A stretch of 64,000 bases of DNA from an uncultured Clostridia bacterium (lineage in GTDB: Bacteria > Bacillota > Clostridia > Christensenellales > CAG-917), in NCBI GenBank assembly GCA_934277615.1, contig CAKQUV010000001.1:206380-270379 (forward strand), in the 5' to 3' direction. The translations under genes were made by a program, and so were the position numbers. Within the stretch, counting starts at the first letter, position 1. Every line of letters begins with the position of its first letter. The notes under the pieces were generated by a model. The model was not told the origin of the DNA. It saw only the letters and a program-made list of their open reading frames with translations, and ran no database searches. Of the stretch, positions 1 through 57,594 are shown in pieces.

Positions 1-25
1 CACGCACGACAAAGGAAAACTGATT

Positions 26-30178: not shown

Positions 30179-30199
30179 TGTTTCACAAAAAGTTTCACG
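30179..30199. promoter_or_regulatory. two parS half-sites (TGTTTCAC, GTTTCACG) in the parA upstream region
   Basis: gatgtttcacaaaaagtttcacgaaaaa lies 40-60 nt upstream of the parA start codon (30140). Confidence 0.4.
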
Positions 30200-30254
30200 A
30201 AAAATTTATAAAAAATGGAAAATAATGTTATTAAATTACTTTCCATTCAAAATT

Positions 30255-35846: not shown

Positions 35847-37796
<1,950 letters not shown>

Positions 37797-37806
37797 GGAG
37801 TGAATT

Positions 37807-40444: not shown

Positions 40445-42139
40445 ATGGAAGAAAGAAAATGGTTCAAAGAGATGTCCGTTTATCAGATTTGGCCTCGTTC
40501 GTTTTGCGACGGAAACGGCGACGGAATAGGCGACCTCAAAGGCGTTTTGAGCAAGCTCGAATACATAAAGAGCCTTGGCAGCGACGCCATTTGGTTCTCG
40601 CCGCTTTACGCCTCGCCGCAAGCGGACTATGGTTACGACATAGCGGACTATTACAACATCAATCCCGAATACGGCACTCTCGACGACTTCAAAGCCGTGC
40701 TTGAAAAAGCGCACGCTCTCGGTATGCGCGTCGTTATGGACCTGGTTATCAACCACACGTCCGACCAACACGATTGGTTCAAAAAGAGTTGCGCGCGCAT
40801 AGAGCCTTACACAGATTTTTATATCTGGCGCAAAGGCAAGGGCAAAGACGGCAAAAAAGTTCCCAACAACTGGATGTCCACTTTCCCCGGCAGCGCATGG
40901 GAATACAACGAGCAAAGAGGCGAGTTTTATCTCCACCTCTACGCCAAAGAGCAGCCCGACCTCAATCATGACAATCCCAAGGTGAGAGAGGCGGTCAAGG
41001 ACGTTATGCGTTATTGGCTGGATATGGGCGTCGACGGATTCCGCGAGGACGTCATTACGCAAATCAGCAAGGTCGAAGGTTTGCCCAACGGCAATTGGCT
41101 TATGCCTGCTTCGAGGGGTATGGAGCATTACAACAACGGCCCTCATATTCACGAGTATTTGCAAGAATACCGCGAGGTTTTGAAAGATTACGATGCGTTC
41201 CAAGTGGGAGAAGCACCGCTTATGAACGTCAAGACCGCGCTTACCTACGTCAACGAGAACAAGAAAGAGCTCGATATGATGATATCCTTCCAACATATGC
41301 AAGCGGATTGTATTATTATCGAGTGGGTGCGTACGCCGTTTAATTTGCCCAAACTCAAAAAAACCTTCAACGAGTGGCAAACCAAACTTTACCATAGAGC
41401 GTGGAACGCCAACTACCTCGAAAACCACGACCACGCGCGTATTATTTCAAGATACGGTAACGAGAATTTCAGAGTGGAAAGCGGCAAAGCGCTCGCAATG
41501 GCTTACACTTTCCTCAGCGGCACGCATTTTGTCTATCAAGGACAAGAAATCGGTATGACCGCACTCTATTTTGACAAATACCCCAAAGGCACGGATCCGT
41601 GGGCGCAATTCAAGGACGTTTCCACCTTCTGCGTGCGCGATTTGATGCGCAAGTTCGGTTTCAGCGACAAACATATCCTCAAAGTCGCACACACCGCCGC
41701 TCGCGACTGCGCTCGCACACCCGTACAATGGAACGGTCAGAAATACGCGGGTTTCTCCACTGTCGAGCCGTGGTATACCGTCAATCCCAACTATCCCCAA
41801 GTCAACGTGGAAAACGCCTTGCAAGACGAAAACTCTATCTGGTATTTCTATCAACGCGCAATGGCGCTCCGCAAAGAGTACAAGGATACCGCGATTTACG
41901 GACAGTTCAAACTCTACTTGCCTCACGACAAGCAACTTTTCGTCTACGACAAGATAGCCGAGGACGGCAAGTCCAAGCTCACCATCGTCATCAATCTGTC
42001 CGCCAAACCCGTCCGCGCTTCTAGGGTAACCAAGTATATTCCGACCGACGCAACGGAGTTGTTGTCCGTCTACGACGATAAGTGGGATAAGGAGTTGCGT
42101 CCTTATTCGGGCAAACTCTTTTACACACAACTTCACTAA
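40445..42139 (+). CDS. GH13 alpha-glucosidase (oligo-1,6-glucosidase / trehalose-6-phosphate hydrolase-like)
   Basis: WFKEMSVYQIWPRSF, VMDLVINHTSDQHDWF, GVDGFREDVI, YLENHDHAR. Start at ATG 40445, 5 nt after GGAGGA (alternative 40433). Confidence 0.9.
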   Translation: MEERKWFKEMSVYQIWPRSFCDGNGDGIGDLKGVLSKLEYIKSLGSDAIWFSPLYASPQADYGYDIADYYNINPEYGTLDDFKAVLEKAHALGMRVVMDLVINHTSDQHDWFKKSCARIEPYTDFYIWRKGKGKDGKKVPNNWMSTFPGSAWEYNEQRGEFYLHLYAKEQPDLNHDNPKVREAVKDVMRYWLDMGVDGFREDVITQISKVEGLPNGNWLMPASRGMEHYNNGPHIHEYLQEYREVLKDYDAFQVGEAPLMNVKTALTYVNENKKELDMMISFQHMQADCIIIEWVRTPFNLPKLKKTFNEWQTKLYHRAWNANYLENHDHARIISRYGNENFRVESGKALAMAYTFLSGTHFVYQGQEIGMTALYFDKYPKGTDPWAQFKDVSTFCVRDLMRKFGFSDKHILKVAHTAARDCARTPVQWNGQKYAGFSTVEPWYTVNPNYPQVNVENALQDENSIWYFYQRAMALRKEYKDTAIYGQFKLYLPHDKQLFVYDKIAEDGKSKLTIVINLSAKPVRASRVTKYIPTDATELLSVYDDKWDKELRPYSGKLFYTQLH

Positions 42140-42245
42140 ATAGCGAATAACTGCGGCAGAGCCGTTCGCTGGTCAACTCATTTACGATTAGTAAATTAGG
42201 GTTGCCCCTCGGACGGCTCTTTCTTGTTCTTCATCTATTTATCGC
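42136..42245 (+). repeat. family-A element, copy A2
   Basis: ctaaatagcgaataactg + stem agagccgt (42158-42165) + core caactcatttacgattagtaaattagggttg (42174-42204) + stem acggctct (42213-42220) + ttcttgttcttcatctatttatcgc. Its first TAA (42137-42139) is the stop codon of the glucosidase gene. Confidence 0.8.
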
Positions 42246-42279
42246 AGTTTGGCAAGCTTTTGTTTAAGCGGAATATTCC

Positions 42280-42357
42280 ACAACTTGCGCCTTCGGCTTG
42301 ATTGCCACGTCACGTCGTTTCTCGCAATGACTATATGGTGGGACACCCACACCCGAA
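42280..42357 (-). repeat. partial inverted family-B copy (B2')
   Basis: The reverse complement reads ttcgggtgtgggtgtcccaccatatagtcattgcgagaaacgacgtgacgtggcaatcaagccgaaggcgcaag, which parallels the 5' part of B3. Arranged head to head with B2. Confidence 0.6.
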
Positions 42358-42373
42358 TTATATTTTTCCTTAT

Positions 42374-42587
42374 GTCATTCCGAGGAGCAACGAATGTTGC
42401 GATGTGGGAATCTAGGCGTTAGCCGCACACACCAAGCAAGCGATATAGCGGAACTGTGGTATGAGTTTTATCCTTGCAAGACTGATAGCGTGTATCGGTT
42501 GCGCGGTAGTAAAGCAAAAATCTAACGTGGCACTTGGCAATACACACAAGTGTGTGTTGCCATTGCCACAGTGACGATTTTTGCTTG
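42374..42587 (+). repeat. family-B element, copy B2 (core plus long hairpin)
   Basis: Core gtcattccgaggagcaacgaatgttgcgatgtgggaatctaggcgttagccgcacacaccaagcaagcgatatagcggaactgtgg...ctgatagcgtgtatcggttgcgcggtag (42374-42509). Then agcaaaaatc...gtggca..tacacac-aag-tgtgtgt..tgccac...gatttttgct. Confidence 0.8.
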
Positions 42588-42613
42588 CTCTTTTCCCCAT
42601 TCTCTATTATAAT
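42585..42613 (+). promoter_or_regulatory. candidate promoter for the flavoprotein gene, overlapping the B2 3' end
   Basis: TTGCTC (42585-42590), 17-nt spacer, TATAAT (42608-42613), 28 nt upstream of ATG 42642 (GAGGTG RBS). Confidence 0.45.
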
Positions 42614-44723: not shown

Positions 44724-45806
44724 ATGAAACTCGGTGTCGTAGGTTTGCCTAACGTAGGCAAGAGCACTTTGTTCAACGCAATCACCAAAGCGGGCGCGCA
44801 AGCAGCCAATTACCCGTTTTGCACCATAGAGCCCAACGTAGGCGTAGTCGCAGTTCCTGACGAGCGACTTGAAAAACTTGCCGCTCTTTACGACAGTAAA
44901 AAAATCACTCCCACTTCGCTTGAATTTGTGGATATCGCAGGTCTTGTCAAAGGCGCAAGCAAAGGCGAGGGCTTGGGCAACAAATTTTTGTCGCACATAA
45001 GGGAAGTTGATGCGATCGTGCATGTCGTAAGATGCTTTGACGACGCCAACATCACCCACGTTGACGGCAGCGTAAATCCTACAAGAGATATCGAAACAAT
45101 CAATTACGAACTTATCTTTGCGGATATGGAAACGCTTGAGCGCCGCATGGCAAACGCCCTTACCAAAGTCAAAGCAGACAAAAAATATCAAGAGGACGTT
45201 GACCGCATCGCCACCATGCAAAAATGGCTCGAAAGCGGAAAACCGCTCCGCAATCTCGATATGGACGAAGACTTCAAGCAGTTTGTGGACGAACAGTTCT
45301 TGCTCACGTCCAAGCCCGTCATTTACGTCGCCAACACCGACGAGGCAGGCATTGGCGGCAACAAATACACCGAGGAAGTCGAACGCATCGCAAAGGAAGA
45401 GAATACGGAGGCAATCGTGCTTTGCGCCAAACTCGAGGAGGATTTGAGCGAGCTTTCCGACGACGACCGCGCCATGTTTATGGAAGATTACGGTCTTAAA
45501 GAGAGCGGACTTGACCGCCTTGTCAAAGCGTCCTACAAACTATTGGGGCTTATCTCCTACCTCACTGCAGGCGAGAAAGAAACCCGTGCCTGGACGATTG
45601 TCAAAGGCACCAAAGCTCCCCAAGCCGCAGGCAAAATCCACAGCGATTTCGAGCGTGGCTTTATCCGAGCCGAGATAGTGGATTATGCAACTTTGCTCGA
45701 ATGCGGTTCTTTCAACGCCGCCAAAGAGCGCGGTAAAGTCCGCAGTGAAGGAAAGGACTATGTTATGCAGGACAACGATGTCGTCCTATTCCGGATTAAT
45801 GTATGA
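44724..45806 (+). CDS. ychF: ribosome-binding ATPase YchF
   Basis: 360 aa. [26 protein letters not shown]-terminal TGS-like domain. Confidence 0.95.
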
Positions 45807-46060
45807 TCGGAGACGGAACTTCGAGCCGCAAGGCGGCGAGCCTGTCGAGCGTCGAGGTAGACGGAATGTACAAGCGACTGCGCCGTGTTGTTGCGTAGCG
45901 GGCGCACAAAGCGCGTGGCATAATGAGTGTACGATACTTATCTATCCGAAGACCGAGTGTTGCCCCCCTGCGGAGCAGTTCCGTGGGTTCCCTCAAGCAG
46001 AGCGCAGAGGGGGAACGGAATAGGGGAAACACATGAGGAAGGGGGGGAAGGTGCATTTAA
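45806..46060 (+). repeat. family-C structured intergenic element, copy C1
   Basis: Starts at the last base of the ychF stop codon. Shares with C2/C3 the order cggag - hairpin gccgc-aag-gcggc (45825-45837) - gtacaag - hairpin tgcgcc-gtgttgtt...-ggcgca (45879-45906) - gcataat. Shares with C3 the block gtgggttccctcaagcagagcgcagagggggaacggaataggggaaacac (45983-46032). Confidence 0.7.
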
Positions 46061-46174
46061 AGAGTTACGACTACACTCTATTAGAACTGTAATCTCACGA
46101 AAAATTTGAGCGTGGCGGTCTAAAAAACTGTGCGCTTTTACTGAAATAATTAAAACAACTCATTTGGAGTAACT

Positions 46175-47857
46175 ATGTTTGAAAAAGAATTAGCAAAGGC
46201 GCTTGCCGTGGAAGGACTTTCCGAGCAAGACGTCGAAAATGCTCTCGAAACACCCAAAGACACTACGCTCGGCGACGTATGTTTGCCGTGCTTCAAGTTT
46301 GCTCGCGCAATGAGGCTTGCGCCGCCCATGATTGCCAACAAACTTTTGCCATACGTTCAATCTCTCGATTTCGTGCAAAAAGTCGAGGTTGTAGGCGGAT
46401 ATCTCAACGTGTTTTTTGACAGAAACACCGTTGCGAAGATGGCTCTTGCAAGCGCAAAGGACGAAAACGTCGGCGCAAGCAACGAGGGCGCAGGCAAGAC
46501 GATTTGCATTGACTATAGTTCCGTAAACATCGCAAAGCCTTTCCACATCGGGCACCTTTCCACAACCGTTATCGGCGGCGCGCTCTATCGTATATTCGAA
46601 CATTTGGGATACAAAGTCGTGGGTATCAACCACCTTGGCGACTGGGGCACGCAATTTGGAAAACTTATTGTCGCAACGCAAAAATGGTCCTCACTCGAGG
46701 ATGTCGCAAACAACGACGAATACTACCTCAACAGGCTTTATGTCCGCTATCACAAAGAGGCTGAGGAGCACCCCGAAATGGACGACGAGGCGCGCGCTTG
46801 GTTCAAGCGTATCGAGGACGGCGACAAAGAGGCGATTGCCTATTTTGACGTGTTCAAAGCGGTAACCATGAAAGCCGTCGGACGCATTTACGACCGCCTC
46901 AAAATCAAGTTTGACAGTTACGCAGGCGAGAGTTTTTACAATGATAAAATGGAAGCTTGCCTCGACATATTGAGAGAGAAGAATTTGCTTGTCGAAAGCG
47001 ACGGCGCACAAGTTGTCAACCTCGACGAATACGGCATGCCTCCGTGCCTTCTCGTAAAGGCGGACGGCGCGACTTTGTATGCAACTCGCGACATCGCCGC
47101 AGCGTATTATCGCAAGAAAACATACGACTTCTACAAATGCCTCTATGTTGTTGCATATCAGCAGAATCTGCACTTTAAACAACTGTTTCAAGTGCTTAAA
47201 CTTATGGATTTTGCAGGTGCGGACGATATGGAACACATTGCGTTCGGCATGGTTTCCATGGAAGACGGATCGATGTCCACAAGAAACGGCAGGGTGATTT
47301 GGCTTCAGGAAGTGCTTGACAAAGCCGTTGATAAGGCAAGAAAAATCATTGAGGAAAAGAACCCCGACACCAAAGACAAAGACGCAATCGCAGAGAGCGT
47401 CGGCGTGGGCGCAGTGGTATTTTCCGCGCTTTGGAACAACCGCATAAAAGACATCGTTTTCTCATACGACAAGGTGCTTAATTTTGACGGTGAAACCGCA
47501 CCTTACGTTCAATACACTTACGCTCGTTGCGCAAGCGCATTGAGAAAGGGCGGCGACATAGATTTTGACAACGTCGATCTTTCTTCAATCACCACCGACG
47601 AGGGCTACGAGGTCATCAAGAGTGTTCTCACTTTCGGCGATTCCGTACGTCTTGCCGCCAAACTCCGCGAGCCATGCTACGTTACGCGCCACGTTGTCGA
47701 CCTTGCCGAAAAATTCAATCGTTTCTACATCGATCATCGCATTCTTGTTGACGATGTACCAACGCGCAACGCCCGTCTTGCACTCACCCAAGCGGTGGCA
47801 AACGTAATTCATTGCGGATTGAGGCTTCTTGGCATCGACACCCCCAACGAAATGTGA
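46175..47857 (+). CDS. argS: arginine--tRNA ligase
   Basis: 560 aa. HIGH-type motif PFHIGHLS, KMSKS-like MSTRNG, and a C-terminal DALR anticodon-binding domain. Confidence 0.95.
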   Translation: MFEKELAKALAVEGLSEQDVENALETPKDTTLGDVCLPCFKFARAMRLAPPMIANKLLPYVQSLDFVQKVEVVGGYLNVFFDRNTVAKMALASAKDENVGASNEGAGKTICIDYSSVNIAKPFHIGHLSTTVIGGALYRIFEHLGYKVVGINHLGDWGTQFGKLIVATQKWSSLEDVANNDEYYLNRLYVRYHKEAEEHPEMDDEARAWFKRIEDGDKEAIAYFDVFKAVTMKAVGRIYDRLKIKFDSYAGESFYNDKMEACLDILREKNLLVESDGAQVVNLDEYGMPPCLLVKADGATLYATRDIAAAYYRKKTYDFYKCLYVVAYQQNLHFKQLFQVLKLMDFAGADDMEHIAFGMVSMEDGSMSTRNGRVIWLQEVLDKAVDKARKIIEEKNPDTKDKDAIAESVGVGAVVFSALWNNRIKDIVFSYDKVLNFDGETAPYVQYTYARCASALRKGGDIDFDNVDLSSITTDEGYEVIKSVLTFGDSVRLAAKLREPCYVTRHVVDLAEKFNRFYIDHRILVDDVPTRNARLALTQAVANVIHCGLRLLGIDTPNEM

Positions 47858-47860
47858 GCG

Positions 47861-47985
47861 CGCCAAACGGCGAATAGCTTTGTCAAAGCCCCTTGAACAG
47901 CAACCCTAACGTACTAATGCGTACGTGAGTTGATGAACAAGGGGCTTTTGACGCGATTGACTCCGTAACAATCGCTATTAAACGC
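47861..47985 (-). repeat. family-A element, copy A3 (whole unit inverted)
   Basis: Stem aaagccccttg (47886-47896) / caaggggcttt (47938-47948) around caaccctaacgtactaatgcgtacgtgagttg, which is the reverse complement of the A core. The flanks ccaaacgg... and ...caatcgctattaa align to the reverse complement of the A1 flanks. Starts 4 nt after the argS stop. Confidence 0.75.
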
Positions 47986-48042
47986 GCTCTTCATCCGTTT
48001 GGACGGCTCTTTTTATAAAGTGCAGTCGTAAAACCTTAATGC

Positions 48043-48382
48043 AATAACCCCCTCTTTCCGGACACGCCGGTATGTCCACTTCGGCGTTTGCGCACCGCAA
48101 TCCGCCTTGTTCGCTTTGGCTACAACACATTCACCGAATGTGTCGCTTAACGCGTCGCGCCCGACCACTCGTATAGGGGGCTTCTATACAAAAGTGAACA
48201 TCGCTCGCGGGGGAGACATTTGGCACTCACATAGACAAGTATCGTTCACTTGTTATGCCACTCGTTCGCCAACGAAAAGAACAACACTCGTTGGCTCACT
48301 TGTACTAATCGTCAAGTTCGGCGCAAAAACGCTCGTCGCCTTGCGACTCGAAGCTCCGAATAAGCACATACCGTTAATAAGT
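48043..48382 (-). repeat. family-C element, copy C2 (inverted relative to C1/C3)
   Basis: The reverse complement shares with C3 aacggtatgtgcttattcggag (48354-48375), gtacaagtgagccaacgagtgttgttcttttcgttggcgaacgagtg and ccggcgtgtccggaaagagggggttatt (48043-48070). The middle part diverges. Confidence 0.75.
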
Positions 48383-48402
48383 ACGCTCCGAACAAGCTTC
48401 CG

Positions 48403-48678
48403 TTCGGGTGTGGGTGTCCCGCCCATATAGTCATTCCGAGCGAAGCGTGGGAATCAAGGCGTCAGCCGTACACACCAAGCAAGCGATATAGCGAAATTGT
48501 GGCGGGAGTACTTATCCTTGCTTGAACTGATAGCGTGTATCGATTGCGCGGTAGTAGAGCAATAAATCAAGCAAGGCTCTCGGCAATCGCCAAAAATATT
48601 CAAAGTTTGAGATTATATTTTTAATCAAAAATATGCAATTTTGGCGGTTGTCGTTGCCTCGGCGATGATTTTTGCTCT
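48403..48678 (+). repeat. family-B element, copy B3 (core plus long hairpin)
   Basis: ttcgggtgtgggtgtcccgcccatata + gtcattccgagcgaagcgtgggaatcaaggcgtcagccgtacacaccaagcaagcgatatagcgaaattgtgg...ctgatagcgtgtatcgattgcgcggtag (to 48554). Then the imperfect hairpin agagcaataaatc...ggcaatcgccaaaa...ttttggcggttg..gcc...gatgatttttgctct. Confidence 0.8.
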
Positions 48679-48683
48679 TTTAC

Positions 48684-48712
48684 TTGACACTATCTTTTGT
48701 TTTATTTATAAT
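48684..48712 (+). promoter_or_regulatory. consensus sigma-A promoter for the rpmH operon
   Basis: TTGACA (48684-48689), 17-nt spacer, TATAAT (48707-48712). Lies directly after the B3 hairpin. Confidence 0.6.
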
Positions 48713-48786
48713 GTTTAAGCATTTATATATTTATACGTGCGCATAAATCAAAAAATAAAAGTCCTAAAAGACGGAGGAATATCACT

Positions 48787-48921
48787 ATGAAACAAACCTA
48801 CCAACCCAAGAAAAGACAAAGAAGCAAAGTCCACGGATTCCGTGAAAGAATGTCCACCAAGTCCGGCAGGAACGTTCTCAAAAGACGTCGCAACAGAGGC
48901 AGAAAGAAACTCAGCGCATAA
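48787..48921 (+). CDS. rpmH: 50S ribosomal protein L34
   Basis: Not in the ORF track because it is shorter than 60 aa. Hand translation gives [52 protein letters not shown] 8 nt upstream. Confidence 0.92.
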
Positions 48922-48929
48922 CGATTGAT

Positions 48930-49262
48930 ATGCAAAAGCAATATAGACTCAAAAAAAGAGCGGCGTTTGCCTACGTTTATCGCAAAGGCGAAAAAGCCTC
49001 TGCAAGAGACCTATTGCTTTTGAGTGCCAAATCCAAGGAAGGATTGAAAATCGGTCTTTCGGTGTCCAAGAAAGTCGGCGGAGCGGTTACGCGCAACCGA
49101 GTAAAACGCCTTCTTCGCGAGGCAATCAAGCCTCTTGAGGCGAACATAGACGCCGGATATATGTACGTAATCGTGGCATATCCCTCGATTGCGGACAAGA
49201 CGTATCAAGACGTATGTCAATCAGTCGAATACGCTTTCAAAAAAGCGGGGAAGTTGCAATGA
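48930..49262 (+). CDS. rnpA: ribonuclease P protein component
   Basis: 110 aa, basic. RLKKRAAFAYVYRKG...VSKKVGGAVTRNRVKRLLREA. Follows rpmH. Confidence 0.9.
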   Translation: MQKQYRLKKRAAFAYVYRKGEKASARDLLLLSAKSKEGLKIGLSVSKKVGGAVTRNRVKRLLREAIKPLEANIDAGYMYVIVAYPSIADKTYQDVCQSVEYAFKKAGKLQ

Positions 49263-49504
49263 TAAAGAGGTTTTGCCTTTGGCTGTTGCTTTTGTACAAG
49301 CGCACGCTGTCGCCGATTACGGGCAATCATTGCGCATACACTCCCACCTGTTCGATGTATTCGTACGACGCGATAAGCAAATGGGGCGCGTTTATCGGCA
49401 TATTGCTCACCATGGAGCGACTTTTGCGATGCACGCCGTTTGCGAAAGGCGGTTTTGATCCCGTCAAAGAGAATTATCGAGGAAGAATCAAATGGCTAAT
49501 TTGA
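49259..49504 (+). CDS. yidD: membrane protein insertion efficiency factor YidD
   Basis: ATG 49259 overlaps the rnpA stop (ATGA). LLLLYKRTLSPITGNHCAYTPTCSMYSYDAISKWG is the YidD signature. Confidence 0.85.
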   Translation: MIKRFCLWLLLLYKRTLSPITGNHCAYTPTCSMYSYDAISKWGAFIGILLTMERLLRCTPFAKGGFDPVKENYRGRIKWLI

Positions 49505-50748
49505 GTTATCCGCAAAAGCGCAAAATACAAGTCTATCTTATCGCGGCTATGATCGCGATACTTTGCTGTATTTTGGTTGCTTGCAACAGCGACAACTCGT
49601 ACAGTGTAGTGGGCGAAAAGGTAAGCGAGCCGACGCACTTTATGGCAAAATTCATGATCGTCGTAAACGACGCTCTCGGCGGCGGAACGGCAAGTTTCGG
49701 CTGGACGGTCGTTTTGTTTACGGTCTTTTTGCGTCTCATTCTTTCCCCGTTCGATATTTGGCAAAAAGTGATTGCCAGAAAGAACAGCAAAGCAATGGAG
49801 CGTATGCGTCCGCAACTCGAAGTTTTGCAAGAAAGATACGCTGACGACAAGCAACGCTTGCAACAAGAGCAAATGGCTCTTTACAAAAAGGAAAAATATT
49901 CCACGTTCGGCATGTGTTTGCCCACGATAATCACGTTTGTCGTGTTCTTTGTCGTTTTTGCAGGATTCAGACAAATGGTCGGCTATCAATTCGCCAAAGA
50001 CTACAAAGAGTGCGTCAACGCATATGACGCGTCCATCTCTCAACAAATCGAGCAGGCGAAGGACAGCGAAGAGTGGTCGGGCGCAATTGTCGATAACGGC
50101 GACGGCAAATATGATTTGGACGATATCGCAAAGACGGAAAAGGGCGCAGAGTTTTTGTCAGCGGCAAAGAGCAACGCGCAAGACGCAGTCTATAAAGTCT
50201 ATTATTCCGACGAGCAAGTTACGATCAGAAGTTGGCTTTGGATAAAGAATATCTTTGTTTCCGACAACTGGGCAAAATCCGTTCCCGATTTCGAAACCGT
50301 TACCGGTCAATCCGGTATGGCAACTTCAAAACTTACGGGCATCACCAAGGACGAATACAACACCGTTATGGCAAAAGTTCTCGGCACCGGCGGATACGGC
50401 AAAGACGGCAAGTGGAACGGACTTCTTATATTGCCCGTATTGTCCATTGCATTGAGTTTGCTCTCAACCGTGCTTATGTCCAAGGCTCAAGGTCAACCGC
50501 CGGCACCGGCTCCCAAAGCGGAAGGCGAGGCAGCGGATAAAGCCAAAGCGCAACAACAATCCATGAAGATGATGCAGTACATTATGCCGATTATGTTCGG
50601 TGTGTTCGCACTCTTCTATTCGGGCGCGTTTGCGCTATATATGTTCACAAGTTCGCTTTGCGCGATATTGTTCCAATTGACGTTCAATCTCATCGCAAAG
50701 ATAGTGGACGTTCAAAGAGAAGGCAACAAGGGCGTTGCCAAAAGATAG
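49492..50748 (+). CDS. yidC: YidC/SpoIIIJ membrane protein insertase (lipoprotein-type N-terminus)
   Basis: 418 aa. Lipobox ILVAC. 60-kDa-insertase core helices (FGWTVVLFTVFLRLILSPF, MKMMQYIMPIMFGVFALFYSGAFALYMF). Confidence 0.9.
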   Translation: MANLSYPQKRKIQVYLIAAMIAILCCILVACNSDNSYSVVGEKVSEPTHFMAKFMIVVNDALGGGTASFGWTVVLFTVFLRLILSPFDIWQKVIARKNSKAMERMRPQLEVLQERYADDKQRLQQEQMALYKKEKYSTFGMCLPTIITFVVFFVVFAGFRQMVGYQFAKDYKECVNAYDASISQQIEQAKDSEEWSGAIVDNGDGKYDLDDIAKTEKGAEFLSAAKSNAQDAVYKVYYSDEQVTIRSWLWIKNIFVSDNWAKSVPDFETVTGQSGMATSKLTGITKDEYNTVMAKVLGTGGYGKDGKWNGLLILPVLSIALSLLSTVLMSKAQGQPPAPAPKAEGEAADKAKAQQQSMKMMQYIMPIMFGVFALFYSGAFALYMFTSSLCAILFQLTFNLIAKIVDVQREGNKGVAKR

Positions 50749-50756
50749 GAGTTAAA

Positions 50757-51641
50757 ATGGAAAAATCAATAGAAACACAAGCGTCATCGGTGGATATCGC
50801 CGTCGAAAAGGCGTTGGTGGAACTCGGTGTGTCGAGAGACAAGGTTGACGTCGAAGTGCTTGCCAAGGGCGGATTGTTCTCCAAGGCAAAAGTCAGAGTT
50901 ACCGTCAAAGACACTGTAGCCGACAAGATGGCAGAGTTTATCAACGGCACGCTTGAACGTATGGGGCTCACCTCTCGCGCGACGGTGGAAGAGAAAGACA
51001 ATACTCTTTACATCACCATCCAAGGCGACGACAGCGGTGTTGCAATCGGATACAGAGGCGAGGCGCTCGACGCATTCCAATATCTTGCGCTCACCTTCCT
51101 CAACGAGCATAAATGCGACTTCAAGAAAGTCGTCGTGGATTGCGAAAACTATCGCGAAAAACGCAAAGAAACACTCACCGCGCTTGCAGAAAAACTTGCG
51201 CAAAAAGCAGTCCGCTTGTGCCGCAAGATCGCTCTCGAACCAATGAACCCGTTTGAAAGACGCATCATTCACAGCGCGCTTGCAGACAGCGAAATTGCAG
51301 ATACCGAAAGCGTGGGCGAAGAACCTCAAAGATATATCGTCATCATCCCCAAGGGGGTTGAGCTCAAAGACCAACGTCCCATCAAGAACGGCGAGCGCGA
51401 GCCGAGAAAAGACTCTCGCAAAGGCGGCAAAAACGACCGCCGCGACAGAAATAACGGCAAAGGCAGACGCGACGACAGAAGAAACGACCGTCGTGAGCGC
51501 AAACCGCGCGAAGAAGAGGACGAAGTCGCAGACGGCAGAGTATATCGCGGATATTTCACCGAGCAAGACGATTTCGTCAAGCCCGTAGCGCAATCCGGTC
51601 CGCCCAAATTCAAGAGCTTTGGCGGAAAAAAGAAATTCTGA
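50757..51641 (+). CDS. jag: Jag/KhpB RNA-binding protein (Jag_N-KH-R3H) with an Arg/Asp-rich C-terminal extension
   Basis: ATG 50757 with TAGGAG RBS. The R3H motif MNPFERRIIHSALAD is followed by about 95 extra residues (RKDSRKGGKNDRRDRNNGKGRRDDRRNDRRERKPREEEDE...). Confidence 0.85.
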   Translation: MEKSIETQASSVDIAVEKALVELGVSRDKVDVEVLAKGGLFSKAKVRVTVKDTVADKMAEFINGTLERMGLTSRATVEEKDNTLYITIQGDDSGVAIGYRGEALDAFQYLALTFLNEHKCDFKKVVVDCENYREKRKETLTALAEKLAQKAVRLCRKIALEPMNPFERRIIHSALADSEIADTESVGEEPQRYIVIIPKGVELKDQRPIKNGEREPRKDSRKGGKNDRRDRNNGKGRRDDRRNDRRERKPREEEDEVADGRVYRGYFTEQDDFVKPVAQSGPPKFKSFGGKKKF

Positions 51642-51642
51642 A

Positions 51643-52995
51643 ATGAGTACGATAGCGGCAATTTCATCACCGATAGGTGCAGGTGGTATCGGCATAGTAC
51701 GTGTTTCCGGCGAGGAAGCACTGCGCATCGCCGATGCCATTTTCTATTTTGCGCATCCCGCCCTTGACGACGGGACGGTTTGCCGTATCCAAGGCGTGAA
51801 GCAAAACTGGAAACCGCTTATGATGAACTTCGGTACTTTCCACGCCACGGAGTTTTGCGACAAAGGCTATGCCGTGTATTTCCCCGGTACGCGCGCGTAT
51901 ACGGGCGAAGATACGGTTGAATTTTATTTGCACGGCGGCGTACGCATTATGCAAGGCGCGCTCGACACGCTTCTTGCAAACGGTGCGGTTATGGCAAAGA
52001 ACGGCGAATTTACCAAGCGTGCGTTTCTCAACGGGCGGCTTTCGCTTGCCGACGCAGAGGGCGTTATAGATATGATACAAGCCGAGAGCGCAGCAGGCGT
52101 AAAGGCGGCGTATAGGCTCATGCAAGGCGACGTGTCCAAAAAAATCAATTCCGTTTGCGACGAGTTGGAAAAGATAATCGCCACACTTGAGGCGACGCTC
52201 GATTATCCCGACGAAATGGAGGACGAGGTTTTGCCGTCGTTGCCCGACGAGATGAACGGAGTGCTCAATGAGGTCAATGCGCTTATAGCCACGGCAAAGA
52301 GCGGTAAAATCGCAAAATACGGCATAAACGTTGCGCTTGCAGGCAATGCCAATGCAGGCAAATCATCGCTTATGAACGCGCTTCTCAAAGAGGACAGAGC
52401 CATTGTTACGGACGTTGCAGGCACCACGAGAGATACGGTTGAGGATAGTTTCGAGTGCGACGGCGTAAAGATAAATCTTATCGACACCGCAGGCATACGC
52501 CAAAGCGACGACATTGTGGAAAGCAAGGGTATAGAGCGCGCCAAGAAAGCTTTTGAGGGCGCAGACGTGATTTTGCACGTCATCGACACAACAAGCGGCG
52601 ACAAGGATAATATCGAACTTCCCGAGGGCGTAATCACGTTTGACGTTTTCAATAAATGCGACGAAACCGGATTTGGAAAACACACTGCAGACAACCAATT
52701 CGAAATAAGCGCCAAGACAGGCAAAGGCGTTGATGCACTTGCGCGCGCAATAGCCGCTTTATATAAAGATGATAAGGTTGAGGGCGGTGAGATAATTACG
52801 TCGCAAAGACATGTATCGGCACTTTATCAAGCAAAAACGGCGCTTGAAAGTGCGATTGAGTCGTTAGACGATACAATCGATTGCACGTTGATTGATTTGC
52901 GTCGCGCCTATGACGCACTCGGCGAAATCACCGGAAAGACCGCAACACAAGACGTTGTGGATAGCATATTCTCTCGTTTTTGCGTGGGTAAATAA
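51643..52995 (+). CDS. mnmE: tRNA modification GTPase MnmE
   Basis: 450 aa. G1 motif GNANAGKSSLMNAL, DTAGIR, and the C-terminal CVGK motif. Confidence 0.93.
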   Translation: MSTIAAISSPIGAGGIGIVRVSGEEALRIADAIFYFAHPALDDGTVCRIQGVKQNWKPLMMNFGTFHATEFCDKGYAVYFPGTRAYTGEDTVEFYLHGGVRIMQGALDTLLANGAVMAKNGEFTKRAFLNGRLSLADAEGVIDMIQAESAAGVKAAYRLMQGDVSKKINSVCDELEKIIATLEATLDYPDEMEDEVLPSLPDEMNGVLNEVNALIATAKSGKIAKYGINVALAGNANAGKSSLMNALLKEDRAIVTDVAGTTRDTVEDSFECDGVKINLIDTAGIRQSDDIVESKGIERAKKAFEGADVILHVIDTTSGDKDNIELPEGVITFDVFNKCDETGFGKHTADNQFEISAKTGKGVDALARAIAALYKDDKVEGGEIITSQRHVSALYQAKTALESAIESLDDTIDCTLIDLRRAYDALGEITGKTATQDVVDSIFSRFCVGK

Positions 52996-53150
52996 AAGCC
53001 CGCAACGATAGAGATATCCGCAATAGATAGAAATATAATAGAATGCGAACTTAAATATAACGAAAAATCACGGCAATTTTCAGCGATAAAACGTAAGGAA
53101 ATTTGTCGTATAAAGATAATAATTTTTGCGATCAATCGCGATATACAACT

Positions 53151-54983
53151 ATGCAAAATTTTGACGCTGTCGTAATAGGAGGCGGACACGCCGGTGTCGA
53201 AGCCTCGCTTGCGCTTGCAAGACTCAATAAAAAAACGCTTATGTTGTGCCTTGATTACGGCACTGTTTCTTTGATGCCTTGCAATCCTGCAATCGGCGGA
53301 ACGGCAAAGGGACATCTCGTCAAAGAGGTGGACGCGCTCGGCGGTCAGATGGGGCTTTCGGCAGACAAAGCGCTTCTTCAAATAAAAACGCTCAATTCGG
53401 CAAAAGGCCCTGCGGTGTTCTCGCTCAGAGGACAAGAGGACAAGGCGGTTTATCACGAACTTATGCTCGATATAGTGCGCAATCAACCCAACCTCACCGT
53501 GCTTGACAAAGAGGCAAGCGAAGTTGTGGCAAAGGACGGCAAAGTGTGCGCCGTGCGCACGACGGACGGTGAAGAGTACGCCTGCAAAGCGGCGGTGCTT
53601 GCCACGGGCGTATATCTCAACGGAGCGATAATCATTGGCGATTACGTCAAAAAGAGCGGCCCTAGCGGATTTGAAAGCGCAACTCATCTTACCGACAGCC
53701 TAAAAAATCTCGGAGTGCAAATGCGCCGTTTCAAGACCGGCACGCCTGCGAGAATTTATCGCGACAGCATAGATTTTTCCAAAATGGAAATCCAAAGAGG
53801 GGATGACAGCGACAGATTCTCCTTTATGTCGCCTCACGAGGTCTTTAAGGAAGAGCCGTGTTGGCTCACATACACCAATGCCCAAACACACAAGATTATA
53901 CTTGACAATATAGACCGTTCCCCGCTTTACAACGGCACCATTCAATCTGTAGGTCCGAGATATTGTCCGTCAATCGAAACCAAAGTTATGCGTTTCAAGG
54001 ACAAGGAAAGGCATCAGATTTTTGTGGAACCCGAGGGCGCTGATAGTGAGGAAATGTACATACAAGGTATGTCCACGTCCTTGCCGCACGACGTGCAAGA
54101 GCAGATGTACAGGACGTTGCCCGGGCTTGAGAATTGCCGCTTTGCCAAATACGGCTATGCAATAGAATACGATTGCCTTGATCCGCTCGGCATGTATCCG
54201 TCGCTTGAAAACAAAGCGGTGGAGGGGTTGTTCTCGGCAGGACAGATGAACGGCAGCAGCGGATACGAAGAGGCGGCGGCGCAAGGTCTTATCGCAGGTA
54301 TCAACGCGGCAAGAAAGATTGACGGCAAAGAGCCGTTTGTATTGCGCAGAGATCAGGCGTATATAGGCGTGCTTATCGACGACCTTGTTACAAAAGGAAC
54401 CAACGAGCCGTACAGAATGATGACCGCGCGCGCGGAACATCGCATATTCTTGCGCCAGGACAATGCTGACATGCGCCTCACCCCCATAGGAAGAGAGATC
54501 GGTCTTGTCGATGACGCACGCTATCAACGCATGCTTGACAAAAAGGCAATGATAGAACGCGTTATCGAGTTTTCATCCAAAACCATGTCCAGGGATATCG
54601 TTGAGGGCTTGTTTAACGAACTCGGTGAAGAGATGCCGCAAAAAACGCCCACGTTTGCCGAGATTTGCAGACGTCCGAGCGTGGAGGCGCAGCACTTGAG
54701 AAGATTTATCGATTTCGAGTGCGACGACGAAGCATTGAAGGCGGCGGCAATCGAACTCAAATACGAGGGCTATCTCAAAAAAGAGCAATCCGCAATCAAT
54801 GAGCAGAAGAGGCTGGAAGGCAAGCTTATCCCCAAAGATTTCGATTACAACTCAATCAAAGCGCTAAGGATAGAGGCAAGACAAAAGCTTTCCGAAATCC
54901 GTCCGCTCAATCTCGGTCAAGCGTCCAGAATATCCGGAGTATCGCCTGCGGACATCGCTGTGTTGATTGTCGCATTGCGATAA
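53151..54983 (+). CDS. mnmG: tRNA uridine 5-carboxymethylaminomethyl modification enzyme MnmG (GidA)
   Basis: MQNFDAVVIGGGHAGVEA FAD motif. 610 aa from ATG 53151 (the ORF track extends to a TTG at 53103). Confidence 0.95.
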   Translation: MQNFDAVVIGGGHAGVEASLALARLNKKTLMLCLDYGTVSLMPCNPAIGGTAKGHLVKEVDALGGQMGLSADKALLQIKTLNSAKGPAVFSLRGQEDKAVYHELMLDIVRNQPNLTVLDKEASEVVAKDGKVCAVRTTDGEEYACKAAVLATGVYLNGAIIIGDYVKKSGPSGFESATHLTDSLKNLGVQMRRFKTGTPARIYRDSIDFSKMEIQRGDDSDRFSFMSPHEVFKEEPCWLTYTNAQTHKIILDNIDRSPLYNGTIQSVGPRYCPSIETKVMRFKDKERHQIFVEPEGADSEEMYIQGMSTSLPHDVQEQMYRTLPGLENCRFAKYGYAIEYDCLDPLGMYPSLENKAVEGLFSAGQMNGSSGYEEAAAQGLIAGINAARKIDGKEPFVLRRDQAYIGVLIDDLVTKGTNEPYRMMTARAEHRIFLRQDNADMRLTPIGREIGLVDDARYQRMLDKKAMIERVIEFSSKTMSRDIVEGLFNELGEEMPQKTPTFAEICRRPSVEAQHLRRFIDFECDDEALKAAAIELKYEGYLKKEQSAINEQKRLEGKLIPKDFDYNSIKALRIEARQKLSEIRPLNLGQASRISGVSPADIAVLIVALR

Positions 54984-55379: not shown

Positions 55380-55408
55380 TTGACAAATAATTCTTTTGGG
55401 CATAATAT
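55380..55408 (+). promoter_or_regulatory. near-consensus orphan promoter with no downstream ORF
   Basis: TTGACA (55380-55385), 17-nt spacer, TAATAT (55403-55408). Preceded by a long A/T-rich tract. Downstream DNA up to 56226 contains only repeat modules A4, A5 and C3. Confidence 0.5.
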
Positions 55409-55511
55409 GTAAACGTAATCGGGAAACGAAAGGCTCCCGAACCAAAATAACTCATAATTTTCCCCCTTATCATAGCGAGCGACTTTGGGTGTATCACCCG
55501 AGGTCGTTTGC

Positions 55512-55640
55512 ATTTTATGGAACAAAACAGCAAATAACTGTGTCAGAGCCACCCGACCATCAACTCATTTACGATAAGTAAACTAGGGTTGCTGTTCGGG
55601 TGGCTCTTCCTTGTTCTTTATCCGTTTTGTTCCATAAAAT
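55512..55640 (+). repeat. family-A element, copy A4, with a 17-bp outer stem
   Basis: attttatggaacaaaac (55512-55528) pairs with gttttgttccataaaat (55624-55640). Inner stem agagccacccga (55545-55556) / tcgggtggctct (55596-55607). Core caactcatttacgataagtaaactagggttg (55561-55591). Confidence 0.8.
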
Positions 55641-55653
55641 ATTATCGTTTTCA

Positions 55654-55733
55654 AACTTTGTCAGCGCGCATTTTTCAAAAATCACGTACGCCAAGTACGT
55701 TGGGTTTTTGAAAAATTTTGCGCTTTCGCGTAA
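55654..55733 (+). repeat. family-A-like unit (A5) with A1-type flanks but a different hairpin
   Basis: aactttgtcag + gcgca-tttttcaaaaa-tc-acgtac-gccaa-gtacgt-tgg-gtttttgaaaaa-ttt-tgcgc + tttcgcgtaa. The flanks equal the A1 aactttgtcag / tttcgcgtta. Confidence 0.55.
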
Positions 55734-55794
55734 TATATCTCTTTGACGGCTTTATATTATGGCGTCATTAAGCGATATACTTCGTCAAAGTCTA

Positions 55795-56152
55795 CTTATA
55801 AACGGTATGTGCTTATTCGGAGTTGGAGGCGCAGGGCGCCGACCGCATCGAGCGCCAAGCTTGACGATAAGTACAAGTGAGCCAACGAGTGTTGTTCTTT
55901 TCGTTGGCGAACGAGTGACATAATAAGGGAAATGTCCCTATCTATGCGCGTGCCGTAAGGAGCGAAGCGACGGAATAGCGATTGCTACGAAGTCAATCGC
56001 GTCGCCTGTCCCCCGCTACGCGGTCGTCGTGGGTTCCCTCAAGCAAAGCGCGGAGGGGGAACGGCGATAGGGAAAACACCTTGAGGAAAGGGAAAATTGC
56101 ATTAAATATTTATTTTTATAAATGCCGGCGTGTCCGGAAAGAGGGGGTTATT
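55795..56152 (+). repeat. family-C element, copy C3
   Basis: Shares its 5' and 3' blocks with C2 and its 3'-central block (56029-56079) with C1. Hairpins ggcgc-agg-gcgcc (55828-55840) and gccaacga-gtgttgttcttt-tcgttggc (55881-55908). Confidence 0.75.
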
Positions 56153-56188
56153 CTATTTAGAGGAGTTATGACGCTCTTTATTTTTCAT

Positions 56189-56218
56189 GGAATATTCCGC
56201 AATTATTAATTATTAATT
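56189..56218 (+). repeat. 30-nt repeat ggaatattccgcaattattaattattaatt (copy 2)
   Basis: 29/30 identical to 28447-28476. Ends 8 nt from the glmM stop codon. Confidence 0.8.
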
Positions 56219-56226
56219 CATAATTA

Positions 56227-57594
56227 TTAATTTCCATTTTCCGTCATAATCCTCTTTATGTCCTCAAATATCATCTTGTATTCCGACACAAAGCACTCGT
56301 ACGTTACGCGGATGAACGGCTCTGTTCCGCTGGGGCGGACGATTAGGCGACCGCTGTTTGCGTAGAGGTTGTTGACAGCGGTGATTTTTGCTTGAAAGTC
56401 GTCGCTTATTATGGTTTGCGACGGGTTTTGAGCGGTTATATTGAATTCGAGCATGGGGTAGGGCGTGTATTTAGGCAGACTTCCGAGCGTGCGCTTGACT
56501 TCCAGAATGCTGAGTGCAGTGATAAGTCCGTCGCCTGTATTTGCTCTGTCGAGCATGAGGATATGTCCGCTTTTTTCGCCGCCGAGCAGACATCCTTGCG
56601 CATTGAGCGCGTCAAGAACGTGCTTATCTCCGACGTCCGTGCGTATGAGTGCAGTGTTGTGGTATGCAAGTTCCCTTTGCAGTTTCGTGCCGGTCAGAAT
56701 AGTGCCCACGACAAACCGCTTTTTGAGCTTTCCTTGCAGCCTGTACAAAGTGGAAAGAGCAAGCAACATAGCGTCGCCGTCGTATATTTTGCCGTCCACC
56801 ACGCCAAGCACTCTATCTCCGTCTCCGTCGAACGCAAAGCCGATTTCGTCTTTTTTCACACGTCGTGCAAACTCTTCTATATGCGTGCTTCCGCACCCGA
56901 CGTTGACCTTTTCTCCGTCTCGGAAATTATGCTCCGCGCACACCACCGCCCCGAGGGACATAAACACCGCAGGCGCAAGCGTGGCAAAGCACCCGTATGC
57001 GCAGTCCAGACGAATTTTGTATCCGTCAAAGCGCGGAAACATGGATTTTACATGCTTTGCATACAAAAATTCCGCCCCGTCGACAATGCGAATCCTATGA
57101 TTTTTCACGGACGGCGTAATGTGCAAATCGCTCAGAATCTCGTCCTCCGTCAGCGTATCTGCACACAAATCCTCGTACAAAAACGCCACGGATTCCTCTT
57201 TCGGATTGTTCATAAGCTCAAACACTGCGCTGTCCAGCACGCACTCTTCCTCGCTTGAGAGTTTTCTTCCGCCTTTGCCGAACACTTTTAGCCCGTTGAA
57301 TTCCGGCGGATTGTGCGACGCGGTGATCATAATCGCATAGTCGGCTTTTTGCGATTGCGCCGTATATGCGAGGGCAGGGGTAGGCAAAACTCCCGCAAGC
57401 CAAATCTGCGCCGAGCCTTCCAGCAACCCTTTGCACAGTTGCTTTTCTATATCTTGCGAGCTTTCTCGCACGTCGCGCGCGACAATCACCTTTCCGCCTT
57501 TTTGCGAAATAGCCTTGCCCAAAAAATACGGAATATCCGCGCTTATAAGCGTATCCGCTTTGTTTCTTATACCGTCTGTACCGAAATAATGCAT
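56227..57594 (-). CDS. glmM: phosphoglucosamine mutase (phosphohexomutase family)
   Basis: Start set at ATG 57594 (MHYFGTDGIRNKA...), giving 455 aa. Active-site loop ITASHNPPEFNGLKVF. The 534-aa ORF-track version runs across the trxB terminator and is rejected. No SD upstream. Confidence 0.8.
   Translation of the reverse strand: MHYFGTDGIRNKADTLISADIPYFLGKAISQKGGKVIVARDVRESSQDIEKQLCKGLLEGSAQIWLAGVLPTPALAYTAQSQKADYAIMITASHNPPEFNGLKVFGKGGRKLSSEEECVLDSAVFELMNNPKEESVAFLYEDLCADTLTEDEILSDLHITPSVKNHRIRIVDGAEFLYAKHVKSMFPRFDGYKIRLDCAYGCFATLAPAVFMSLGAVVCAEHNFRDGEKVNVGCGSTHIEEFARRVKKDEIGFAFDGDGDRVLGVVDGKIYDGDAMLLALSTLYRLQGKLKKRFVVGTILTGTKLQRELAYHNTALIRTDVGDKHVLDALNAQGCLLGGEKSGHILMLDRANTGDGLITALSILEVKRTLGSLPKYTPYPMLEFNITAQNPSQTIISDDFQAKITAVNNLYANSGRLIVRPSGTEPFIRVTYECFVSEYKMIFEDIKRIMTENGN

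Follow-up and report, generated by a model that had tools for sequence, protein, structure and literature searches.

The arginyl-tRNA synthetase gene argS and the rpmH operon of an uncultured Clostridia bacterium (Christensenellales) are separated by a spacer of 929 nt (47858–48786), which raises the question of what this DNA is made of. Coordinates refer to the window, i.e. the whole 64,000-nt stretch of contig CAKQUV010000001.1 that was analysed. An original prediction, drawn from the letters of this window, described the spacer as made entirely of repeat modules and as ending in a consensus rpmH promoter. We consider it likely that the spacer is a region of the interspersed-mosaic type, in which lineage-specific non-coding hairpin repeats have piled into the slot between a terminator and a promoter. 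From argS to rpmH, a damaged A hairpin and an inverted C element come first, then two small hairpins (D and G) and a B core, and last a 120-nt hairpin resembling a terminator and the promoter:

46175–47857, plus strand: argS (Pfam tRNA-synt_1d, DALR_1 and Arg_tRNA_synt_N), whose TGA stop codon (47855–47857) abuts the A element.
47858–48004, plus strand: A3, a damaged copy of family A (nhmmer matches on both strands; alignment with the orthologue in relative L005).
47950–47983, plus strand: a 34-nt mini-hairpin (gcgattg...caatcgc) inserted in A3 and repeated inside the C3 element at 55974–56003 (inverted repeat, 93%).
48001–48014, plus strand: the remnant 3′ arm and T-run of an apex-less A-type terminator.
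48015–48402, minus strand: C2, a copy of the ~350-nt C element (repeat pairs with 55780–56160; nhmmer, 140 bits; alignments).
48403–48424, minus strand: the D mini-hairpin with a 5-bp stem, G[CT]GGG-ACA-CCC[GA]C followed by ACCCGAA, often found directly 5′ of C elements.
48430–48455, plus strand: the G hairpin, GTCATTCCGAG...GGGAATC, common to B1, B2 and B3 and originally read as the 5′ part of the B unit.
48463–48557, plus strand: the B3 core (nhmmer, 86 bits).
48556–48680, plus strand: a 120-nt imperfect hairpin with a terminator-like stem (48646–48670) and T-run, its left arm being the 3′ continuation of B units.
48684–48712, plus strand: the rpmH promoter, TTGACA-17-TATAAT.
48713–48786, plus strand: the 5′ untranslated region (5′UTR) of rpmH with Shine-Dalgarno sequence GGAGG, 78–96% identical across the close clade.
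48787–54983, plus strand: rpmH-rnpA-yidD-yidC-jag-mnmE-mnmG (Pfam).

Repeat content of the spacer and its counterparts in relatives

A repeat search of the window paired the spacer with 25074–25391 and 42135–42512 in direct orientation and with 55512–56160 in inverted orientation. By BLAST, 485 of the 929 nt have paralogues inside the window, and 744 nt (~80%) do so when non-orthologous sites in relatives are included. The parts left uncovered are the short right flank of the A element (which a profile search recognises), approximately 90 nt in the apical part of the big hairpin (48588–48677), and the 3′ part of the 5′UTR. The claim that repeat modules make up the entire region was thus nearly right, the hairpin apex and the promoter/5′UTR stretch being excepted. 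The other copies in the window are the following:

25069–25186, plus strand: A1, which together with B1 fills the dnaN–dnaA spacer (locus 1, 25069–25395).
25262–25395, plus strand: B1, in the same locus.
42130–42247, plus strand: A2, overlapping the stop codon of an amylase gene (locus 2, 42130–42600).
42420–42515, plus strand: the B2 core, followed by a long hairpin (42505–42590), in locus 2, which also holds an inverted G hairpin, a D and a G hairpin.
45806–46075, plus strand: C1, truncated at its 5′ end and beginning directly at the ychF stop codon.
55517–55634 and 55635–55751, plus strand: A4 and A5 in tandem, followed by C3 (locus 4, 55517–56170).
55775–56170, plus strand: C3, inverted relative to C2.

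The junction was compared with that of 45 uncultured Christensenellales (loci are labelled L and a number). The order argS then rpmH is kept in 55 loci, with ArgS identities as low as 66%; only the sublineage of L046 and L049–L051 departs from it, the rpmH block there being inverted and lying upstream of ychF. Most relatives with an ArgS identity of at most 83% have a spacer of only 94–271 nt, longer ones occurring in L021 (363 nt), L022 (583 nt) and L072 (693 nt). In the closest clade (ArgS identity of at least 87%) the spacer measures 484–1092 nt, except in L020, where its 214 nt hold the stop codon, a canonical terminator (AGCCCCTCGCAAGCGCGAGGGGTTTCTCTTTT) and the promoter. Across the expanded spacers, only the promoter and 5′UTR (window 48670/48683–48786) match in every species. 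L003, L065, L082 and L032 lack the C element; L005, L040, L018 and L010 have it in the orientation of the window, L006 and L015 in the opposite one. B occurs in some close relatives only.

This comparison shows that the ancestral state is a short spacer (~100–270 nt) holding the promoter, which in some relatives is preceded by a canonical terminator. It further shows that expansion is limited to the closest clade, with a module content that differs species by species, and that promoter and 5′UTR form the conserved functional core, everything upstream of them being variable repeat material. Because only this core is common to all, the modules are lineage-specific additions to an old terminator–promoter spacer. 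Comparison of the junction, which the original prediction had proposed, thereby identified the modules as insertions: a conserved single-copy leader free of paralogues is not what the relatives carry, and no reading frame is conserved in the region. The density of the families follows the same clade, with 24 copies of A, 13 of C and 4 of B per 100 kb among close relatives and values 7–20 times lower in remoter clades. The neighbouring ychF–argS spacer holds no element in L042, L024, L008 and L020 (–1 to 57 nt) and is filled elsewhere.

The promoter that closes the mosaic is genuine, as had been predicted. It matches the consensus at 12 of 12 positions, and a promoter stands at the same position in 39 of the 45 relatives (searched as TTGAC[A/T]-16..18-TA[A/T]AAT within 130 nt of rpmH). 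Its conservation bears on the idea that the spacer is a remnant of the replication origin (oriC) or regulates the rpmH operon in cis as a leader (attenuator or riboswitch), which we regard as very improbable. The classical position of rpmH beside dnaA and oriC, and the length and high degree of structure of the region, would agree with such an origin or leader. However, all modules lie upstream of the conserved promoter and are therefore not in the rpmH transcript, the B core accordingly lying outside the rpmH leader, and relatives without modules keep the same promoter and 5′UTR. Moreover, 47858–48786 contains no DnaA box (TTATCCACA, up to one mismatch), as originally noted, and dnaA (25496–26869) and a cluster of DnaA boxes and parS-like sites (32–34.9 kb) are found elsewhere. 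The surprise that the original prediction implied at the lack of oriC and dnaA beside rpmH is unfounded: adjacency of argS and rpmH is ancestral for the family, down to the same 66% ArgS identity. Since the linkage of rpmH and dnaA was thus lost throughout the family, a spacer without DnaA boxes is expected rather than anomalous; the separation of rpmH from dnaA/oriC is an old one here.

Hidden protein-coding genes, e.g. an open reading frame (ORF) of 107 aa at 48107–48430, have next to no probability as an explanation of the spacer. ORFs of 40–107 aa do exist in it, but Pfam yielded no match for the six spacer ORFs, nor for the C element. No open frame is conserved in C, whose paralogous copies are interrupted by stops in each of the six frames and differ by indels of lengths not divisible by three, and the variation is compensatory in stems rather than codon-like. 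ORFs such as the 107-aa one are spurious and arise from the repeats.

The family A hairpin at the terminator position

Family A was characterised from 114 non-redundant copies found by profile searches in ~1.3 Mb of argS-centred loci, and from a second sample, in which 89 unrelated metagenome contigs retrieved through the 17-mer GCGAATAACTGCGTCAG gave 158 copies (272 copies in total). The unit is an imperfect hairpin of 118–130 nt whose 31 pairs fall into four helices. The outer helix, of which the stop codon can form part, is followed inwards by a short A/T helix containing a fixed mismatch (GAATAAC/GTTCTTC), then by the GC-rich stem of 11 bp and, at the apex, by a stem of 5 bp. Conserved unpaired stretches lie between the helices (GCG, YGTCA, TCA...TTAGG and CATC), the 11-bp stem encloses a structured and conserved apex of 44 nt, and the flanks of 28 nt are conserved as well. 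In 60 diverse copies 92.8% of the cells are paired, as compared to 66.6% in shuffles and 33–46% with slid partners. Double changes occur in 27 of the 31 pairs (507 cells in all), and all 10 pairs of the outer helix show compensatory changes. Mismatches of the G.T type (46) are about as frequent as those of the A.C type (49), so that what seems to be constrained is strict complementarity, such as a DNA palindrome or templated repair would give, and not an RNA-like fold tolerant of wobble.

The position of A relative to genes is equally regular, the gene context counts being based on simple ORF-based gene calls. A co-oriented gene lies upstream of 81 of 89 copies in the first sample and, under the same spacer classification, of 88 of 102 copies in the independent metagenome sample, in which 135 of 150 copies point the same way as the nearest gene upstream; orientation tracks the adjacent gene on both strands. 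In approximately half of the copies, no more than a few nt separate the stop codon of that gene from the start of the element, and a second peak at about +130 nt corresponds to tandem copies. Coding DNA holds none of the 109 classified copies of the first sample and 2 of the 158 of the second. Directly after the argS stop codon an A copy is found in every close relative, its stems and even its apex subtype differing between species.

Apex-less forms combine the A left flank with a plain loop of 3–7 nt and a T-run and are textbook terminators (L005:5657, L005:11895, L109, L009:1956 and L010:11912); the tail of full copies is rich in T and C, its first 8 nt containing 4.3 T. Together they form a series from plain terminator to elaborated 130-nt hairpin that can be used for studying how terminators evolve into repeat families. 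Chimeric copies with arms of different subtypes (L010:5467 and L004:1985) show recombination between copies. The idea that the A apex is a free module landing in terminator loops was rejected, as its orientation is fixed by 159 to 1.

The single exception to this fixed orientation is A3 itself, which is a decaying copy and not an inverted unit. The original prediction had the whole unit inverted. The left (47858–47885) and right (47984–48004) flanks are in plus orientation as in all orthologues, and only the apex (47896–47937), enclosed by stem arms 47886–47895 and 47938–47947, is turned round, the sole such case among 160 A copies. A3 folds at –61 kcal/mol (z = –7.7). The mini-hairpin inserted in it is absent from its L005 orthologue and is also an insert in several C copies. 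The outer helix of A3 is truncated: L005 has ~140 nt extra, including a second, apex-less A-type terminator that is intact there (AGAGCCGTCC-GATTGTA-GGACGGCTCTTTTTT) at the same place. In the window, the 5′ arm of this terminator was lost in a ~140-nt deletion joining two GGACG motifs (microhomology). What is left, ggacggctcttt at 48001–48012, had been recognised as identical to an A2 arm (42211–42222), and the L005 comparison bears it out as a true remnant of a short A-type terminator arm.

These data suggest how the two ends of the spacer may work. Family A would hold the terminator slot, and most likely it derives from, or acts as, a terminator or 3′-end hairpin. At the other end, the 120-nt hairpin was well described by the original prediction: 48556–48678 folds at –48.4 kcal/mol (z = –7.0). 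A terminator scan calls its stem at 48646–48670 with tail TTTGCTCTTT, a combination of the textbook form for an intrinsic terminator, and the 3′ half of the hairpin is conserved in L003, L005, L006, L065 and L018. The hairpin and T-run at 48646–48680, immediately ahead of the –35 box, may insulate the rpmH promoter from read-through, and because A3 is damaged, read-through from argS may be stopped here instead. A like arrangement of B core, long hairpin (ending in GATTTTTGCT) and promoter precedes the gene at 42642.

The apparent strict complementarity of A also bears on an alternative in which the modules are sites used at the DNA level, be it for recombination or inversion, for cruciform or nucleoid-protein binding, or as single-stranded hairpins for an HUH/RAYT- or integrase-type enzyme (RAYT, transposase associated with repetitive extragenic palindromic (REP) elements). 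We think this unlikely. The missing excess of RNA-type wobble in A would suit it, as would the unpaired YGTC tag before the stem in 51 of 60 A copies (which recalls CGTC-tagged REPs), the C2/C3 pair of inverted repeats, and the rpmH block lying inverted beyond ychF–argS in L046 and L049–L051. However, no recombinase or RAYT-like gene recurs beside the modules in the ~2.3 Mb of loci sampled, and the rpmH block has the same orientation in all repeat-carrying close relatives. The way in which A orientation tracks the adjacent gene on both strands fits a transcription-linked function at least equally well. Nor was any transposase-like or recurrent non-housekeeping gene seen beside a module in these ~2.3 Mb, and both the genes neighbouring C copies and the protein families that recur in 120 extra contigs were all housekeeping.

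As a separate observation, the DNA directly before the tandem copies A4 and A5 (55380–55520) holds a promoter-like sequence (TTGACAAATAATTCTTTTGGGCATAATATG) and two small hairpins (cgggaaacgaaaggctcccg and gactttgggtgtatcacccgaggtc), with no ORF and no Rfam match in this interval. It could encode a small RNA ending at A4.

Families C and B and the RNA alternative

C2 lies in minus orientation at ~48015–48402, as had been read originally. Its conserved 5′ domain (CL) spans 48226–48392 and its 3′ domain carries an extra insert (~48077–48160). With C3 it forms inverted repeats 7.4 kb apart that bracket the rpmH–mnmG block (86–90% over the conserved parts). It is antisense to argS and rpmH transcription, and nothing links it to either gene. 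The conserved 5′ domain of ~170 nt was found in 63 copies in a first set and 53 in a second. C elements show no orientation bias (17 vs 14), are enriched in convergent spacers (18 of 34, against a background of 18%), and often lie ~20 nt downstream of an A element. Many copies are truncated, interrupted by the mini-hairpin or recombined. The D mini-hairpin was found in 17 copies next to several different modules, with compensatory C/T–G/A changes in its stem. An AT-rich module, AATTATTAATTATTAATT, often followed by GGAATATTCC, recurs at 28062–28089, 28447–28484 and 56189–56228 of the window; in relatives it frequently stands directly 5′ of a D mini-hairpin and C element.

Several features of C and B raise the possibility that the larger modules are RNA genes or elements, C being a ~350-nt high-copy structured RNA (encoded on the minus strand here) and B with the 120-nt hairpin a small RNA that stops at a terminator of its own. 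The spacer would then be a group of RNA loci and not junk, a reading that we find doubtful. In its favour, the central hairpin of C survives in 32 versions of distinct sequence that enclose a conserved GTGTTGTT loop (CTTGTAGAG being the other conserved loop motif), and a GCCGC/GCGGC hairpin covaries. The 3′ domain exists in at least three types. In two of these, alpha and beta, a long-range helix is formed by unrelated sequences (UCUCCC-CCGC/GUGG-Y-GGGAGA vs UUCCCCU-UUGC/GCAA-U-AGGGGAA), and the 3′ helix flanks invariant tandem G.A/A.G pairs (24 of 24). A covarying R:Y pair is split between A-U and G-C among the alpha copies (13 of 13) and is A-U in the beta copies (11 of 11). Mismatches in C are G.U in 13 cells and A.C in 2; 12 of the 13 G.U cells, however, belong to one inherited column.

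In B, of which 14 full-length copies were aligned, a long-range helix (48479–48492 with 48533–48547) is paired in 92.3% of cells vs 78.8% in shuffles, a value that none of 500 shuffles reached, with 30 double changes. Its switches include GCAA/TTGC, GCAG/CTGC, GCCG/CGGC, GCGA/TCGC and GATATAGC/GCGTGTATC vs AATCTTGC/GCAAAGATT, and a U.G pair is kept in 6 of 6 variant-1 copies. The helix that the original prediction had taken as covarying, caagcaag/cttgcttg (48476–48483 with 48518–48525), did not survive this alignment: 71% of its cells are paired, a value that 413 of 500 shuffles reach, and it overlaps with the long-range helix, so that the two are mutually exclusive. The 5′ extension ascribed to B3 was borne out, 48405–48431 being the reverse complement of 42331–42358. 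At its other end the B unit runs on into the left arm of the long hairpin, and a terminator-like hairpin follows both B2 and B3. The G hairpin has the general form GTCATTNNGAG...NNAATC, with a stem that on direct reading covaries (ATTCC/GGAAT, ATTGC/GCAAT, ATTCT/AGAAT and ATGTT/AACAT); it may resemble a widespread GTCATTGCGAG...GCAATC repeat.

Against RNA genes stands the fact that the folds are no stabler than those of shuffles, with z = –0.8 for the whole C element and z = –0.1 for the B core. Because of indels, RNAalifold gave poor structure for the whole C 5′ domain, in which only sub-helices are established. Rfam 15 gave only tRNA-Asn above the gathering score, and permissive scans of the spacer and the whole window gave chance-level miRNA-type hairpins. 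No conserved promoter was found upstream of C or D. Moreover, C and B are found either way round with respect to neighbouring genes, and copies are often truncated, chimeric or interrupted.

We return to the spacer as a repeat mosaic, in which A, B, C, D, G and the mini-hairpin would accumulate and rearrange in the one place that tolerates them, from the end of argS up to the rpmH promoter, with C, B, D and G as dispersed passengers that have nothing specific to do with argS or rpmH. Certain points weigh against it. Termination by A or by the 48646–48670 hairpin is predicted from sequence; the tail of A is only moderately T-rich, and a simple terminator scan leaves A elements uncalled. The ~2.3 Mb of loci yielded no transposase, no terminal inverted repeat or target-site duplication was found for the modules, and the sampled copies come largely from orthologous neighbourhoods and unrelated metagenome contigs rather than from one complete genome. 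The RNA-like features of C (tandem G.A, G.U and GNRA-type loops) are unexplained if the modules are purely selfish DNA, and the conserved asymmetric internal loops and fixed-orientation conserved apex of A suggest a specific ligand or a function beyond termination.

These last two points can be brought together in a tentative joint reading, to which we give limited credence. In it, C would be an undescribed structured RNA of ~350 nt, present in dozens to hundreds of copies per 1.6-Mb genome, with kink-turn-like tandem G.A pairs, covarying helices and variable insertion points. A would be a hairpin derived from a terminator, with a dedicated protein that recognises its conserved apex and asymmetric loops. 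The two might constitute a lineage-specific repeat system of gut Christensenellales that goes beyond selfish spread, e.g. in 3′-end processing, guide-RNA-like mobility or defence. If C or A have a dedicated function, they would represent new structured nucleic-acid classes.

Known repeat systems and the remainder of the window

Among known systems, the REP elements of Proteobacteria, with their composites, the bacterial interspersed mosaic elements (BIMEs) and REPINs, are of the closest kind. REP elements are high-copy extragenic palindromes that mostly occupy the spacers of tandem or convergent genes, at a distance of less than 20 bp from the 3′ end of the upstream ORF, whose stop codon they sometimes supply; the unit has 20–40 nt, with an unpaired GTAG or CGTC tag, a stem of 8–9 bp, a loop of 4–5 nt and a short CCA tail (Di Nocera et al. 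2013, PMC3733652). Family A matches them in location, copy number and mosaic habit, and like the CGTC-tagged REPs it has an unpaired tag (YGTC) ahead of a stem whose first pairs are A-T. For REPs, a part in termination and in stabilising mRNA has been proposed, as termination is here for A. However, A fails the REP size and shape, with its 118–130 nt, four helices, 44-nt apex and 28-nt flanks and without a CCA tail, and its host belongs to a Firmicute-type Clostridia lineage rather than to the Proteobacteria. RAYT (Y1/HUH) genes, the partners of REPs, were not seen beside modules in the loci sampled. The families of the window are thus a new REP/BIME-like set of a known general kind.

Other repeats resemble single aspects of the spacer. 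The enterobacterial repetitive intergenic consensus (ERIC) or intergenic repeat unit (IRU) is an imperfect palindrome of 127 bp in enterobacteria. The Correia/NEMIS elements of Neisseria carry conserved terminal inverted repeats, duplicate a TA target and can serve as terminators and as substrates of RNase III. Like A, ERIC and Correia elements are imperfect palindromes of ~100–150 nt in transcribed intergenic regions, with a presence that varies between related species. Unlike in Correia elements, the outermost helix of A varies with compensation and no target duplication was seen, and there is no sequence similarity. The pneumococcal BOX elements consist of boxA, boxB and boxC modules in fixed A-Bn-C order. 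Like the spacer, they are shuffled non-coding intergenic modules of stable predicted structure in varying numbers and combinations, whereas the modules of the spacer differ in size and host and combine in many orders and orientations.

Intrinsic terminators share with the apex-less A forms and with 48646–48670 a GC-rich stem, a T-rich tail and a co-oriented position downstream of genes, and L020 has a plain terminator where other relatives have A. Yet ordinary terminators form no sequence family, and the full A element differs from them by its long conserved apex, flanks forming two further helices and a weaker T-run. As regards miniature transposable elements with inverted repeats (MITEs), A has no conserved terminal inverted repeats and no parent insertion sequence was found in the ~2.3 Mb of loci, so that membership is unsupported. 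At filled ychF–argS sites, compared between species, the flanks TTAAG/CTTAA, TTGAG/CTCAA and CGAG/CTCG act as a covarying extension of the helix with no fixed duplication.

The attC sites of integrons were considered separately. They are imperfect palindromes too (57–141 nt), lie right after ORFs in fixed orientation and keep structure over sequence, and some A copies read GCCTAAC...GTTATGC, resembling R″/R′ boxes. A was nevertheless rejected as attC, since its R-like boxes are internal and mostly misfit RYYYAAC/GTTRRRY, as do the commonest ones (GAATAAC/GTTCTTC), its neighbours are core housekeeping genes (argS, ychF, dnaN and mnmG) in place of cassettes, and no integrase was seen.

The evidence points to spread of the modules by processes at the DNA level: copies would recombine with one another, lose stretches at microhomologies, invert their hairpin loops and land preferentially beside terminator hairpins. 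Template switching at hairpins and a putative transposase are further candidates. Searches of plasmid and phage collections (blastn) gave no match to the modules. In IMG/VR the C pattern had no match, and none of the 12 matches to the A-apex pattern was a real A element. A literature search found no paper describing such repeats in Christensenellales. Abundant repeat families that were previously unannotated and absent from Rfam are documented here for a common uncultured gut lineage.

The protein encoded by argS of the window is found in identical form on human-gut metagenome contigs of the ENA, and an exact 24-mer from the 3′ end of the gene had no match in the metagenome_contigs collection. 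The nearest genomes are metagenome-assembled genomes (MAGs) labelled Christensenella sp. UBA767/UBA7571 and "uncultured Clostridiales"; one of the relatives, CP091723.1, is a complete chromosome of 1.65 Mb. Many MAG contigs hold only argS and its flanks or end just past argS (L002, L004, L009, L011 and L019), and runs of N (scaffold gaps) fall inside A and C elements in L003, L005 and L015. The repeats appear to break short-read metagenome assemblies of this lineage.

The genes associated with the origin, together with ychF, lie elsewhere in the window (all identified by Pfam):

23966–25066, plus strand: dnaN.
25496–26869, minus strand: dnaA.
26977–28077, plus strand: recF.
28482–30944, minus strand: parB, parA and rsmG.
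35886–40386, plus strand: gyrB and gyrA.
44724–45806, plus strand: ychF.

The stretch at 32.4–34.9 kb, upstream of hlyIII-gyrB, is AT-rich (36–38% GC) and ORF-poor; the bin 48001–50000, which holds most of the spacer, has 46% GC vs 36–38% at 32–36 kb. Perfect DnaA boxes occur at 32004 and 33871 and one-mismatch boxes at 33880, 34021 and 34753, together with four parS-like sites, TGTTTCACGTGTAACG at 32926, 33787 and 34199 and CGTTTCACGTGGAACG at 34232. On this pattern of motifs, oriC and the partition region probably lie at 32.4–34.9 kb, at distances of ~14 kb from rpmH and ~6 kb from dnaA. The arrangement of the origin genes is unusual in that dnaA stands on the minus strand between dnaN and recF, convergent with the former and divergent from the latter.

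In the convergent recF–parB spacer, 28127–28181 gave a sub-threshold Rfam match to the Streptococcus small RNA SpF10 (34 bits vs a gathering score of 60, E = 0.008); it overlaps with a hairpin at 28137–28195 and probably reflects no more than a terminator. The interval 1665–13637 encodes predicted surface proteins of very large size (1057, 2153 and 579 aa), in which Big_2, MBG_2 and Listeria-Bacteroides repeat domains occur. Finally, two near-identical hairpins, AAAGGA(G/A)CGC(A/G)ATGCGTTCCTTTTGGCGC, lie 56 nt apart at 21418–21502, beside tRNA-Asn (21497–21572, minus strand).

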